Shown here: positions 4,165-10,960 of the stretch, piece by piece | How positions within the stretch are numbered: position 1 is the stretch's first letter | How the letters are laid out: each line of letters starts with the position of its first letter | NCBI RefSeq assembly: GCF_044324785.1 | Contig: NZ_CP172127.1 | DNA from: Escherichia coli | GTDB taxonomy: Bacteria; Pseudomonadota; Gammaproteobacteria; Enterobacterales; Enterobacteriaceae | Strand: one strand, 5' to 3' | DNA length: 64,000 bases | Position numbers and translations under genes: made by a program | Notes under the pieces: generated by a model | Told to the model about the DNA's origin: nothing | Seen by the model: only the letters and a program-made list of their open reading frames with translations | Database searches by the model: none

Positions 4165-4236
4165 AATATTATGTTAACGGCATGTATATCATTTGGGGTT
4201 GCGATGACGACGAACACGCATTTTAGAGGTGAAGAA

Positions 4237-5922
4237 TTGAAGAAGGTTTGGCTTAACCGTTATCCCGCGGACGTTCCGACGGAGATCAACCCTGACCGTT
4301 ATCAATCTCTGGTAGATATGTTTGAGCAGTCGGTCGCGCGCTACGCCGATCAACCCGCGTTTGTGAATATGGGGGAGGTGATGACCTTCCGCAAACTGGA
4401 AGAACGCAGTCGCGCGTTTGCCGCTTATTTGCAACAAGGGTTGGGACTGAAGAAAGGCGATCGCGTTGCGTTGATGATGCCTAATTTATTGCAATATCCG
4501 GTGGCGCTGTTTGGCATTTTGCGTGCCGGGATGATTGTCGTAAACGTTAACCCGTTGTATACCCCGCGTGAACTTGAGCATCAGCTTAACGATAGCGGCG
4601 CATCGGCGATTGTTATCGTGTCTAACTTTGCCCACACTCTGGAAAAAGTGGTTGATAAAACCGCCGTTCAGCACGTAATTCTGACCCGTATGGGCGATCA
4701 GCTATCTACGGCAAAAGGCACGGTAGTCAATTTCGTTGTTAAATACATCAAGCGTCTGGTGCCGAAATACCATCTGCCAGATGCCATTTCATTTCGTAGC
4801 GCCCTGCACAACGGCTACCGGATGCAGTACGTCAAACCCGAACTGGTGCCGGAAGATTTAGCTTTCCTGCAATACACCGGCGGTACCACTGGTGTGGCGA
4901 AAGGCGCGATGCTGACTCACCGCAATATGCTGGCGAACCTGGAACAGGTTAACGCGACCTATGGTCCGCTGTTGCATCCGGGCAAAGAGCTGGTGGTGAC
5001 GGCGCTGCCGCTGTATCACATTTTTGCACTGACCATTAACTGCCTGCTGTTTATCGAACTGGGTGGGCAGAACCTGCTTATCACTAATCCGCGCGATATT
5101 CCAGGGTTGGTAAAAGAGTTAGCGAAATATCCGTTTACCGCTATCACTGGCGTTAACACCTTGTTCAATGCGTTGCTGAACAATAAAGAGTTCCAGCAGC
5201 TGGATTTCTCCAGTCTGCATCTTTCCGCAGGCGGAGGGATGCCTGTTCAGCAAGTGGTGGCAGAACGTTGGGTGAAACTGACTGGACAGTATCTGCTGGA
5301 AGGTTATGGCCTGACCGAGTGTGCGCCGCTGGTCAGCGTTAACCCGTATGATATTGATTATCATAGTGGTAGCATCGGTTTGCCGGTGCCATCGACGGAA
5401 GCCAAACTGGTGGATGACGACGACAACGAAGTACCACCGGGTCAACCGGGTGAGCTTTGTGTCAAAGGACCGCAGGTGATGCTGGGTTACTGGCAGCGTC
5501 CGGATGCTACCGATGAAATCATCAAAAATGGCTGGTTACACACCGGCGACATCGCGGTGATGGATGAAGAAGGATTCCTGCGCATTGTCGATCGTAAAAA
5601 AGACATGATTCTGGTTTCCGGTTTTAACGTCTATCCCAACGAGATTGAAGATGTCGTCATGCAGCATCCTGGCGTACAGGAAGTCGCGGCTGTTGGCGTA
5701 CCTTCCGGCTCCAGTGGTGAAGCGGTGAAAATCTTCGTAGTGAAAAAAGATCCATCGCTTACCGAAGAGTCACTGGTGACTTTTTGCCGCCGTCAGCTCA
5801 CGGGCTACAAAGTACCGAAGCTGGTGGAGTTTCGTGATGAGTTACCGAAATCTAACGTCGGAAAAATTTTGCGACGAGAATTACGTGACGAAGCGCGCGG
5901 CAAAGTGGACAATAAAGCCTGA
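4237..5922 (+). CDS. fadD: long-chain fatty-acid-CoA ligase FadD
   Basis: AMP-binding signature [12 protein letters not shown]; conserved N-terminus [14 protein letters not shown] starts at TTG 4237 after a GAGGTG RBS; track ORF extends upstream to ATG 4171. Confidence 0.9.
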
Positions 5923-5941
5923 GCGTTAAGTCAGTCGTCAG

Positions 5942-5967
5942 ACGCCGGTTAATCCGGCGTTTTTTTT
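5942..5967 (+). terminator. intrinsic terminator of fadD
   Basis: ACGCCGG-TTAAT-CCGGCGT stem-loop followed by T8, 20 bp after the fadD stop. Confidence 0.8.
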
Positions 5968-5991
5968 GACGCCCACTAAAGAGAATACAAT

Positions 5992-7119
5992 TTGAATTAC
6001 CAAATGATTACCACGGACGATGCGCTGGCTTCTTTGTGTGAAGCCGTCCGTGCCTTTCCGGCGATAGCCCTGGATACTGAATTTGTTCGTACGCGCACCT
6101 ATTACCCGCAACTGGGTCTAATTCAACTTTTTGATGGTGAGCATCTGGCGCTAATTGATCCTCTCGGGATCTCCGACTGGTCACCGCTGAAAGCGATCCT
6201 GCGCGATCCGTCCATCACAAAATTTCTCCATGCGGGCAGTGAAGATCTGGAAGTGTTCCTCAATGTCTTTGGCGAATTACCACAACCCTTGATTGACACG
6301 CAAATCCTTGCTGCCTTCTGCGGACGCCCGATGTCATGGGGTTTCGCTTCCATGGTGGAAGAGTATTCCGGCGTTACGCTGGACAAGAGTGAATCGCGCA
6401 CCGACTGGCTGGCCAGACCGCTGACCGAACGTCAGTGTGAATACGCAGCGGCGGATGTCTGGTATCTGTTACCGATCACCGCAAAGCTTATGGTAGAAAC
6501 GGAGGCCTCCGGCTGGCTACCTGCGGCGCTGGATGAATGCCGCCTGATGCAAATGCGTCGTCAGGAAGTCGTTGCACCGGAAGATGCCTGGCGTGATATT
6601 ACCAATGCCTGGCAGTTACGCACACGCCAACTGGCCTGTCTGCAACTGTTAGCCGACTGGCGACTGCGCAAGGCGCGGGAGCGCGATCTGGCGGTGAACT
6701 TTGTCGTGCGTGAAGAGCATTTGTGGTCGGTAGCGCGTTATATGCCGGGAAGTTTAGGCGAACTGGACAGCCTGGGCTTATCCGGTAGCGAAATCCGCTT
6801 TCACGGTAAAACGCTGCTGGCGCTGGTGGAAAAAGCGCAGACATTGCCGGAAGAGGCCTTACCGCAGCCGATGCTTAACCTGATGGACATGCCGGGTTAT
6901 CGTAAAGCGTTTAAAGCGATTAAGTCGTTGATTACTGACGTGAGCGAAACGCACAAGATCAGCGCCGAATTGCTGGCATCGCGTCGGCAAATCAACCAAC
7001 TGCTGAACTGGCACTGGAAACTGAAACCGCAGAACAATTTGCCGGAGCTGATTTCCGGCTGGCGTGGTGAGCTGATGGCGGAAGCATTACACAATTTATT
7101 GCAGGAATATCCGCAGTAA
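5992..7119 (+). CDS. rnd: ribonuclease D
   Basis: 375-aa ORF MNYQMITTDDALASL starting at TTG 5992 (non-ATG start is established for rnd). Confidence 0.9.
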   Translation: MNYQMITTDDALASLCEAVRAFPAIALDTEFVRTRTYYPQLGLIQLFDGEHLALIDPLGISDWSPLKAILRDPSITKFLHAGSEDLEVFLNVFGELPQPLIDTQILAAFCGRPMSWGFASMVEEYSGVTLDKSESRTDWLARPLTERQCEYAAADVWYLLPITAKLMVETEASGWLPAALDECRLMQMRRQEVVAPEDAWRDITNAWQLRTRQLACLQLLADWRLRKARERDLAVNFVVREEHLWSVARYMPGSLGELDSLGLSGSEIRFHGKTLLALVEKAQTLPEEALPQPMLNLMDMPGYRKAFKAIKSLITDVSETHKISAELLASRRQINQLLNWHWKLKPQNNLPELISGWRGELMAEALHNLLQEYPQ

Positions 7120-7172: not shown

Positions 7173-8138
7173 CTACAAATCCAACACCAGGCGTTTACCC
7201 TTCGCGCGCGAACAACAGATCAACATACTTTGCTGGCTGGCACGCTCTTCATCGCTAAAATACTGATCCCGATGGTCAGCTTCACCTTCCAGTATTGCCG
7301 TTTCGCAGGTTCCGCATACCCCTTCACGACATAAACATTCCACTTTCGCTGCTTTATTATTTTCAATAACCTGCAAAATAGTCATCTCTTCCGGCACCAC
7401 ATACTCTTTACCGGAACGGGCAAGCACCAGGGTAAATGCATCGCCGGTTTTGTCTTCAATCGCAAATTGTTCAAAGTGCAGCGTATCGGCGGCGATGTCC
7501 AGACGCGCAGCTTCACTTCTTACCGCCTCATTTAGCGCTTCGGGGCCACAGGTATAAACATGTGTGCCAGGTTCGATATCCGCCAATAATCGCGCTAATT
7601 CCAGTCGTGTTCCGGTTGATGAATGATGCAAATGGACTTTCTCAGCCTGCGGATGCTGGACTAGCTCATCACGAAATGCGCAACTTTCTGGATTTCGTGA
7701 GCAGTAATGTAACTGCCAGTCGACGTCGCTGTATTGCATCTCTGCCAGGTGCGACAGGAAAGGGGTGATACCAATGCCTCCCGCGATAAACAGATGCTTT
7801 CTGGCCGAGGGAATTAGCGCAAACAGGTTATTAGGCGTTGAAATCGTTAACCGATCGCCCACTTTTACCTGCTGATGCAAAAAGCGGGAACCGCCGCGCG
7901 AGTTTTCCTCCAGCCGAACGGCAATCTGATAACAAGAGGTGTCATGCGGCGAACTCAGTAGTGAATACGCATTGCTGTACTCGTTATCACCATCGCTCAT
8001 CTGCACAATGACGTGACTTCCTCCGGTAAACGCAGGTAATGGTTTGCCATCGGTTGCCACCAGCGTGAAGCGTTTCACCTGTTCGGTAAGCGGTTCAATT
8101 TGGCTCACCTGTACTTCAAACATTTGATAGTCTGACAT
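7173..8138 (-). CDS. yeaX: reductase subunit of Rieske-type carnitine monooxygenase (CntB-like)
   Basis: 321 aa; C-terminal plant-type 2Fe-2S motif CREGVCGTCE. Confidence 0.85.
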   Translation of the reverse strand: MSDYQMFEVQVSQIEPLTEQVKRFTLVATDGKPLPAFTGGSHVIVQMSDGDNEYSNAYSLLSSPHDTSCYQIAVRLEENSRGGSRFLHQQVKVGDRLTISTPNNLFALIPSARKHLFIAGGIGITPFLSHLAEMQYSDVDWQLHYCSRNPESCAFRDELVQHPQAEKVHLHHSSTGTRLELARLLADIEPGTHVYTCGPEALNEAVRSEAARLDIAADTLHFEQFAIEDKTGDAFTLVLARSGKEYVVPEEMTILQVIENNKAAKVECLCREGVCGTCETAILEGEADHRDQYFSDEERASQQSMLICCSRAKGKRLVLDL

Positions 8139-8193
8139 TGCTGTACTCCATCAAAAATCAGCCCAGCGGCGGAAAATACCGCCGCCGATGTCA

Positions 8194-9318
8194 TTAGTCC
8201 TTAAACACCTGCGCCAGCAGATTATGGAAATGGGCGATACCATGTTCGGAAATTCCGCTACCGCTACTGTCGGCCATGATGCGCCCCTGACCACGATAGC
8301 CACGCGATTTCAGCCCTTTCTGTACGCTTTCAACCAGACGTAAATCTTCCGGACGGAACACATCGCGATACCACTCAATCAGCGATTTTTGCTCGTCGGT
8401 TAACTCTTCATTGGTGAAGTAAATATCGTAGTTTTGCAGGGTAGTTTCAGAATCCACCGGGAATTCATAAATGACCGTCATCATCCCTTTGATCGGGGTG
8501 ACGTTCAGCATCGTGCACGGCCACAGCCAGAAACCGTGGAATGCCGCATCCGTGCCCTCTTCGAATTTGAAAGACTGTTCGGACGGTTTGGCGAAACCGT
8601 ACTGCAGCGTCCAGTTACCGTGCATGGTGTGCCAGTAACGATCAACCTGAACGGAGTCGGAGAAACCTGGATGCGCCGGACCACAGTGATAGCACTCGAG
8701 ATAGTTATCGACAATGTTCTTCCAGTTGGCAGGCGTGCGGGTGGTAAAGCGGGCCGCCAGTTTCAGGTCGTGGACTTCCGGGCAGGCTTCCAGCACTTTC
8801 GCGCCCAGACCGGGTAACTGATCTTCTACGCTGGTGGCGTTGGGGTCCATGTTGATGAAGACGAATCCGGCATATTCTTCCAGACGCACCGGAACCAGTT
8901 GCGCTTTGTCGCTATCGAAATTGGCGACGTTTTCGCAGTTACGTGCATGGGCCAGATTGCCATCGAGTTTGAATGCCCATGCGTGATACGGGCAGGTAAT
9001 CACATTTTTTGCTTTTCCTTCACCGCTCAACAACTGATGACCACGGTGCGGACACACGTTATAGAACGCGCGCAAAACCTTATCACGACCGCGTACCAGC
9101 ACGATGCTTTCGCCAATGATCTCACGCGTCACATAATCATTGGCATTAGCCAGTTCGCTGCTGTGAGCGACGCAAATCCAGCTTTTGGCGAAGACGTTCT
9201 CTTTTTCGTGTTCAAAGGCGTTCTGATCGGTATAAAAACGGGCAGGAATGGTCCACGCCTCTTGCGGGTTAGCGCAAAAATTTTCGGGTAGTACAAAGTC
9301 AGGGCTCAGATTGCTCAT
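8194..9318 (-). CDS. yeaW: Rieske oxygenase subunit of carnitine monooxygenase (CntA-like)
   Basis: Rieske motif CPHRGHQ...CPYHAW; conserved start MSNLSPDFVLPE at ATG 9318; track ORF is upstream-extended. Confidence 0.85.
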   Translation of the reverse strand: MSNLSPDFVLPENFCANPQEAWTIPARFYTDQNAFEHEKENVFAKSWICVAHSSELANANDYVTREIIGESIVLVRGRDKVLRAFYNVCPHRGHQLLSGEGKAKNVITCPYHAWAFKLDGNLAHARNCENVANFDSDKAQLVPVRLEEYAGFVFINMDPNATSVEDQLPGLGAKVLEACPEVHDLKLAARFTTRTPANWKNIVDNYLECYHCGPAHPGFSDSVQVDRYWHTMHGNWTLQYGFAKPSEQSFKFEEGTDAAFHGFWLWPCTMLNVTPIKGMMTVIYEFPVDSETTLQNYDIYFTNEELTDEQKSLIEWYRDVFRPEDLRLVESVQKGLKSRGYRGQGRIMADSSGSGISEHGIAHFHNLLAQVFKD

Positions 9319-9349
9319 AGGGTTACCTTTATCGTTAGGATGATGGCGC

Positions 9350-10960
9350 TCAGTTGTCGCCTTTGAATACGGTTCCCGCAGGGAGCACTGGTGTTTTTTC
9401 CAGGGCTTCAACCGGTGTCTGCGGGAGATAATGTTCAACTTGATGAGCCGGAATGTCGGCGTAATCCTGTTTCAGCCAGCGAATAAATCCGCCGACTTTC
9501 ACCAGTAAAATGACGAGGAAGGGAAGGGCTGTGAGCACGACGGTGGTTTTCATCGTTTCCAGCGAAGCACCGGTAAACAAGATGGAAAGCGGGATCAGAG
9601 TGATCACCACGCACCAGAAAAGACGCAGCCCACGGTCAGGATCTTCACCTTCCTGGAGATTACGCGTACTGGTCGCCGCCATGGTGTAGGCCACCGCATC
9701 CATATGCGAGGCAAGGAAAATAATCATCACGCCCAGGTATGCGGCGAGGAACAATTTACCGGCTGGCAACGACATCAGAACTTGCTGCACAGCTGTTTCA
9801 CCGCCCAGTGTTTCCAGCACCTGTGGGACGTTGATTACGCCATTGATAAACTGATGAATGGCATAGCTTTCCATTACGCCGAAGAAGAACCAGCAACCGA
9901 CGGTGCTGCCGAGGATCAGTCCCCAGATAACTTCTTTAATCTTATGACCGCGGGAAACGCGGGTGACAAACATTGCTACGCCAGGCGTGTATGAGATCCA
10001 CCACAGCCAGTAGAAAACGGTCCAGTTGCGGGTAAATGAACCATCGCCAAGCGGATCGGTGAATAAGCTCATTTGCAGGAAGTTTTGCGTGGTCAGGCCG
10101 ATGGCATTGATGATGCTGTTGGTAATAAATTCGGTTGGACCGACAATCAGCACCAGTAATGGCAGCAGGAACGCGCCCCAGCCAACCATTTTGCTCAGAC
10201 GTTGCAAACCGTTGTTGATACCAATCCATGAGCTTAGGCAAAAAATGCCGCCGGAAAGCAGGATCACAAATGCCTGCACGGTGAAGTTATCGGGTAAACC
10301 GGTCAGTGCGGAAAGTCCACGAGTAAAGGTTGCTGCGGTGACAACAAGGGAAATAGTCAGTGCGCCGACAGTGGCGATCAGGAACATCAAATCAACCAGT
10401 TTTCCCCATGGGCCTTGCGGGCGAACGCCGGTAATCGCGGCAATAATGCCGGAAAGACTCAGACCTTTGTTTTTCCGCACATGAAAGTGATAAGCCATGA
10501 TTAATGAGGCCAGCGTATAAGTTGCCCAGGCGCTGATGCCCCAGTGGAAGAAGGAGTAAGGGACGCTAAATTCGAGTGCCTGTTGTGAACGCGGTGCGAT
10601 ATTTAATCCAGGCGTTTGATAATAATAGGCCCATTCAGCAACCCCCCAATAAAGCGTAGAAGAACCTAAACCGGCACAAATAAACATAAACAGCCAGGAG
10701 AGCGTGCTGTATTCCGGTTTTCCTTCGCCAAGACGAATATTGCCGTATTTACTGGTGGCTAAATAAATCACCAGTCCCATTGCCAGCAAAACCAATACCT
10801 GTACGGCGGAACCTAACGTACGCGTAACAAAAGTGTATATTGCGTTGGCCGCGTCGGCCGATTGTTGTGGGAAAAGGCTTAATGCAGCTGCGATGAAAAG
10901 AATGGCCACCAGGCTGATGCTTATCAGCGGCACATCTTTTTTCTTAACATTGCTCATCAT
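9350..10960 (-). CDS. yeaV: BCCT-family (betaine/carnitine/choline) transporter YeaV
   Basis: Multi-TM ORF directly upstream of yeaW on the same strand; exact start uncertain (track ORF 536 aa may be N-terminally extended). Confidence 0.8.

Follow-up and report, generated by a model that had tools for sequence, protein, structure and literature searches.

Support for UUG initiation of rnd in Escherichia coli, in a leader that contains the fadD terminator hairpin and U tract

Weak or non-AUG initiation codons that are combined with an A/U-rich enhancer or a poor ribosome-binding site are known from fepB (GUG with an AU-rich enhancer), pcnB and infC (AUU), as well as from rnd, the gene for RNase D. 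The logic is the same in each: expression is held down by the non-canonical initiator, at a level set by an A/U-rich element upstream or by a poor binding site. Zhang and Deutscher reportedly confirmed the UUG of rnd by N-terminal protein sequencing in a 1988 NAR study. Their J Biol Chem work of 1989 is said to have mapped a single rnd promoter about 70 nt upstream and to have found higher expression with AUG, and their PNAS work of 1992 reportedly found that the U's, and not the stem-loop, are required, deletion of the stem-loop alone being without effect. According to reviews, in the passages that treat rnd, its mRNA is read from a UUG codon and has a U-rich translational enhancer to which 30S subunits bind and which is active in vivo (citing Zhang & Deutscher 1992), and a J Biol Chem paper of 1989 on rnd (PMID 2681190) bears 'Evidence for translational regulation' in its title. 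The UUG start and U-rich enhancer of rnd are thus already known, having been published in 1988-1992, and rnd is among the first examples of this combination. Unlike the elements of fepB, pcnB and infC, the U-rich element of rnd doubles as the tail of an intrinsic terminator, common to the upstream gene and a small RNA.

Here we describe the rnd locus in a 64,000-nucleotide stretch of E. coli DNA (contig NZ_CP172127.1; hereafter the window), to whose positions all coordinates refer unless K-12 is named. The gene is an open reading frame of 375 amino acids with a TTG start, present as such in the program-made ORF table. Its product matches the NCBIfam RNase D equivalog NF008089 over residues 1-375 with 750.5 bits (cut-off 516) and the broad RNase D equivalog TIGR01388, also of NCBIfam, with 544.8 bits (cut-off 298.95); the latter model begins at residue 5. 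The domain matches (PF01612 at residues 3-169, PF00570 at 213-279 and PF21293 at 301-366) amount to a DEDD 3'-5' exonuclease domain followed by two HRDC domains, the architecture of RNase D, and the product differs at two residues from the solved E. coli RNase D, PDB 1YT3, which has 375 residues and begins MNYQM. An earlier note on this DNA had placed the rnd frame at TTG 5992, with the N-terminus MNYQM, 25 nt after the T8 tract of a hairpin; direct reading and the ORF table bear this out (5992 - 5967 = 25), and all of its coordinates and distances are right. The features of the region are as follows, from 5' to 3'.

5881-5966, + strand: SroD small RNA (RF00370), comprising the 3' end of fadD and the terminator; described in the literature
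5885-5890, + strand: -35-like hexamer GTGACG, within fadD codons, 17 nt upstream of GACAAT
5908-5913, + strand: -10-like hexamer GACAAT, within fadD codons, its last base 7 nt before 5920 (6 nt between)
5920, + strand: rnd transcription start, from K-12 position 1888063 (minus strand)
5920-5922, + strand: fadD stop codon TGA, by direct reading
5940-5962, + strand: extended hairpin from the terminator scan, 9 bp of which 6 are G-C
5942-5960, + strand: GC-rich hairpin with a 7-bp core, ACGCCGG (5942-5948), loop TTAAT and CCGGCGT (5954-5960)
5960-5967, + strand: U8, the tail of the terminator; also the U-rich translational enhancer published for the rnd mRNA
Between T8 (5960-5967) and the in-frame TAA (5977-5979), + strand: GACGCCCAC, by direct reading of 5700-6300
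5977-5979, + strand: in-frame TAA that closes the rnd frame upstream
5979-5984, + strand: weak Shine-Dalgarno (SD) sequence AAGAGA, duplex with the 16S 3' end of -2.9 kcal/mol
5992-5994, + strand: rnd UUG initiation codon, from the ORF table, K-12 annotation, 1YT3 and comparison
5992-7119, + strand: rnd coding sequence, 375 codons plus stop
6004-6006, + strand: ATG, codon 5 (Met), in frame (TTG AAT TAC CAA ATG = M N Y Q M)

The window represents another E. coli strain than K-12, and the rnd (b1804) leader of K-12 is the same locus, with the same UUG start, the same hairpin and U8 between promoter and start, and the same U-rich enhancer. There is no difference of substance between the two leaders: the only base that differs is 5986 (T in the window, A in K-12), at position -6 in the spacer between SD and start. 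The 601 bases around the rnd start have a match in 5425 of 5426 E. coli genomes and are 100% identical to several complete genomes, including those of strains Ecol_316 and THO-008. A megablast search of all E. coli genomes with 75 nt of the leader matched 2149, a number probably lowered by the word size and by the common A variant at 5986. Downstream of rnd, E. coli carries yeaX and yeaW (carnitine monooxygenase; window 7173-9438), and Salmonella and distant relatives (L083, L085, L089-L092) carry minE and minD on the opposite strand, a synteny unlike that of E. coli. Upstream, fadD (start region, window 4171-4239) is also annotated from a TTG, at 4237, preceded by the strong SD AGAGGTGA at 4225-4232; its longest ORF, of 583 aa, starts at ATG 4171, which some gene callers use (L084). 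Two neighbouring genes are thus annotated with UUG starts.

The in-frame TAA shuts the rnd frame upstream, which leaves TTG 5992 and ATG 6004 as the only candidates for the start. TTG 5992 is the first initiator after this stop codon and has an SD, weak as it is, at functional spacing: AAGAGA is separated by 7 nt from TTG 5992 and by 19 nt from ATG 6004. A search for pairing with the 16S 3' end found, apart from AAGAGA, no SD-like element between 5965 and either candidate start. Between the U tract and the TTG there are 24 nt.

To get a comparative view of this start, we assembled rnd leader DNA from 80 Enterobacteriaceae species and Salmonella. One of the six peptide patterns with which the loci were collected was MNYQMITT itself, and loci with MTYQ, MNYQI and other N-termini were still recovered; a distant RNase D set was collected without this bias. 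Among the 76 distinct Enterobacteriaceae leaders, 72 have TTG and 4 have GTG as codon 1 of rnd, and none has CTN or TTA, whereas all six leucine codons are in use at the internal leucine codon 12. Codons 2-4 change almost only at the third position (AAT/AAC, TAC/TAT, CAA/CAG), with a per-site variability of 0.28-0.39 at +6, +9 and +12 and of 0.08 or less at +4, 5, 7, 8, 10 and 11. The three-base periodicity therefore begins immediately after the TTG, at +4. The spacer from -7 to -1 is variable and non-periodic. The AGAGA of positions -12 to -8 shows no or almost no variation across 74 distinct sequences. The ATG at codon 5 is kept in 75 of the 76 leaders and replaced by ATT in one species (L049).

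Many distant RNase D representatives, at about 35-54% identity, have an N-terminus of the form M-[N/D/K/Q]-[Y/F]-x-[L/F/W]-I, with Leu or Phe rather than Met at residue 5. The DNA of four distant rnd genes reads GTG GAT TAC CGA CTG, GTG AAT TAT CAA TTG, ATG AAT TAT CAA CTG and GTG GAT TAC CAA TTT, such that the equivalent of codon 1 is GTG in three and ATG in one, and a non-AUG start also occurs outside the Enterobacteriaceae. Given Leu or Phe at residue 5 and GTG or ATG at codon 1 in these homologues, position 1 is the ancestral N-terminus, and Met5 is an Enterobacteriaceae-specific replacement.

The two candidates are also divided between annotations. The curated rnd of K-12 MG1655 has 1128 nt and starts at the TTG, and PGAP annotates 1116 nt from ATG 6004 in all four RefSeq E. 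coli strains sampled (NZ_AP022536, NZ_AP018784, NZ_CP100966 and NZ_CP018957). In database records, the exact 371-aa form is found on at least 1000 contigs versus 154 for the 375-aa form; among the homologue matches listed, the Salmonella entries and most Citrobacter entries have 375 aa. PGAP may prefer the ATG because the TIGR01388 model begins at residue 5.

If ATG 6004 were the sole start, the protein would have 371 aa and TTG AAT TAC CAA would be untranslated leader. This reading can draw on the PGAP calls, on the commoner database form, on the TIGR01388 boundary and on a canonical codon that nearly every leader keeps. Against it, the conserved SD is 19 nt off with nothing SD-like nearer, the 12 nt upstream of the ATG vary synonymously, at third positions only, and the TTG is exchanged with GTG alone; L049 carries ATT instead of the ATG, Leu or Phe is encoded there in distant homologues, which begin at the codon-1 equivalent, and both the curated K-12 annotation and PDB 1YT3 have 375 aa. 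We regard a sole start at ATG 6004 as extremely unlikely. Dual initiation, with the main product from UUG 5992 and a minor isoform of 371 aa from ATG 6004, has in its favor two legitimate initiators 12 nt apart in a stretch that is unstructured when folded. It is nonetheless very doubtful, as the ATG has no SD in range, Met5 is not ancestral and was lost in L049 without visible compensation, and we found no report of two RNase D isoforms in the literature. A tetracycline ribosome-profiling supplement has no entry for rnd/b1804 and is neutral on the start codon. Initiation at TTG 5992 rather than at ATG 6004 is thus supported by the K-12 annotation, the 375 residues of 1YT3, the literature and the comparative DNA. 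The earlier note had named initiation at the ATG as the outcome that would count against its TTG; this is indeed the PGAP start in 4/4 strains, yet the evidence here goes against that annotation, which is probably a truncation of rnd by four codons.

Transcription of rnd begins within the end of the upstream gene. In the SMRT-Cappable-seq operon table (PMC6131387, Supplementary Data 2), an rnd-only operon, 'b1804', has its transcription start site at K-12 position 1888063, marked 'same' as RegulonDB, and the part of the table around the locus contains no fadD-rnd operon. Neighbouring entries fit NC_000913.3 coordinates, and the conversion to the window is 1893983 minus the K-12 coordinate, in an alignment without indels here and with one substitution (5986). 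The start site accordingly coincides with the first base of the fadD stop codon (5920), and the rnd leader is 72 nt long. This position, -72, agrees with the promoter distance of about 70 nt that is said to have been mapped. The start site is upstream of both the hairpin, by only 22 nt, and U8, so that both belong to the rnd leader and have to be read through in every rnd transcript.

A default promoter scan of 5600-6200 found nothing, GTGACG and GACAAT having 8 of 12 matches, and the rnd promoter was assigned by hand from the published start site. We infer that it is embedded in the last fadD codons, with GTGACG/GACAAT as its hexamers. In about 80 Enterobacteriaceae loci, the fadD sequence CGT GAC GAA GC (5884-5894) shows no synonymous change in CGT GAC GAA, and GAC AAT AA (5908-5915) is nearly invariant at the nucleotide level, whereas codons nearby vary freely. 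These frozen fadD codons are consistent with either an embedded promoter or a constraint from SroD.

The terminator scan returned a single site, the hairpin stem at 5940-5962 followed by the T run. The hairpin alone folds with -14.4 kcal/mol (z = -6.1 versus shuffles) and is 99.3% paired across an alignment of 67 distinct leaders from Enterobacteriaceae, two of its pairs showing compensatory changes (CG to UA and GC to AU). A U-rich tract is present in 67/67 aligned leaders, mostly as T7-T9 or T6AT and in a few as shorter or interrupted forms (T5AT, T5ATT). The hairpin is not a chance feature, and the TTG, the SD and the U tract are likewise conserved. Directly after the U tract (5968-5976), a GC-rich box is kept across genera (GACGCC in E. 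coli, GGCGC/GGGCGC elsewhere; L003-L085), and weak pairing of this box with the sequence just 5' of the hairpin is possible. In Enterobacter-type leaders (L025-L029, L033, L038 and others), the tract, 27 nt before the start, reads TTTTTTATGGGCGC; its ATG is without an SD and is not in E. coli, and in some lineages it is in frame with rnd with no stop between, such that gene callers could add a 9-residue N-terminal extension.

In K-12, Term-seq under three growth conditions (PMC7815308) detected strong RNA 3' ends at positions 1888017, 1888018 and 1888020. They lie 27-29 nt before the rnd ORF, and the Term-seq table assigns them to fadD and sroD as the primary 3' end. In the window, whose hairpin and U tract are identical in sequence to those of K-12, they correspond to 5966, 5965 and 5963, within the T8 tract. 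A GC-rich stem-loop thus stands directly before a U run in which RNA 3' ends are found in vivo in K-12, as expected of an intrinsic terminator. One further Term-seq 3' end falls inside rnd at window ~6100 (K-12 1887883, minus strand), ~108 nt into the coding sequence; it is in one of the three condition tables, apparently that for minimal medium, judging by table order.

The same hairpin and U tract form the terminator of SroD. The match to Rfam RF00370 is full-length (115.2 bits versus a gathering score of 50, E = 2e-24), and SroD scored above the gathering threshold in 9 of 10 other genera tested. An Rfam match to snoR9 (16 bits versus 90) was rejected as noise. The 5' end of SroD, 5881, is inside fadD, 39 nt before the point at which rnd transcription starts (5920). 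SroD is therefore not simply an aborted rnd leader, and resembles instead a piece of the 3' end of fadD. The earlier description of hairpin and T8 as the fadD terminator is accordingly upheld by the Term-seq 3' ends, and was incomplete in that the two are also in the rnd 5' UTR, given the start site at 5920, and form the SroD 3' end.

From these elements, the most likely pathway is as follows. The rnd mRNA starts at 5920, from a probable weak promoter within the last fadD codons, and every rnd transcript has to read through the hairpin and U8. One hairpin both ends fadD transcripts and forms the SroD 3' end; on rnd transcripts, it would presumably act as an attenuator. In read-through transcripts, 30S subunits would bind via the weak SD AAGAGA, aided by the upstream U8 as a U-rich enhancer, and ribosomal protein S1 may bind the U tract, as the usual explanation has it. 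The weak promoter, the terminator in the leader, the weak SD and the UUG, acting in series, would keep RNase D low, presumably for a purpose, and the U tract would partly compensate for them. The U run does lie upstream of the SD within the transcribed leader, where an enhancer would be placed. Its function as an enhancer is as reported in the literature; conservation of the tract fits an enhancer and a terminator alike. We consider this explanation as a whole, with rnd read from UUG 5992, a weak promoter, a read-through leader and a weak SD aided by U8, to be very probably correct.

The earlier note had tied the non-ATG start and the upstream structure to translational control of rnd, and its suggestion that the stem-loop matters raises the possibility that the stem-loop itself, and not the U tract, is the control element, through folding of the leader or as a binding site. 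The extreme conservation of the hairpin would suit this, as would a short flanking helix of 3 bp in which the box that follows the U tract pairs with bases just 5' of the hairpin (alignment A1, columns 17-19 with 56-58), which is 85.6% paired with some two-sided changes. Such double changes are few, however, and pairing in the flanking helices is weak (duplex z of -0.8 on average; 65% paired) and missing in Salmonella; moreover, a terminator role for fadD and SroD fully explains why the hairpin is conserved, and the reviews, where they treat rnd, name the uridine-rich sequence as the required element. Control by the stem-loop itself is thus unlikely, and of the earlier claim the UUG and the U tract stand, in keeping with the reviews, whereas the stem-loop is disfavored. 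A second helix that would enclose the U tract, predicted for E. coli between 5923-5930 at the 5' end of the leader and 5965-5972, is 65% paired across genera and was rejected as a conserved feature. A broader conjecture is that the hairpin and U8 form one shared switch for fadD mRNA, SroD and rnd, in which the GGCGC/GACGC box and the weak pairing would tune read-through versus termination and couple RNase D synthesis to conditions that alter terminator efficiency or fadD/SroD output; we think this improbable. The preferred reading remains that of a terminator whose U tract also serves the rnd mRNA as an enhancer.

With this analysis, the UUG start of rnd gains independent, non-experimental support from an initiator-only codon 1, from a periodicity that begins at codon 2 and from Leu/Phe at position 5 in distant homologues. 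A by-product is comparative evidence that the common RefSeq rnd start, ATG 6004, is four codons short. Another is that the rnd leader, the fadD terminator and SroD are linked. The practical news is that the sampled PGAP-annotated RefSeq E. coli genomes and, by contig counts, many other records probably carry RNase D four residues short.
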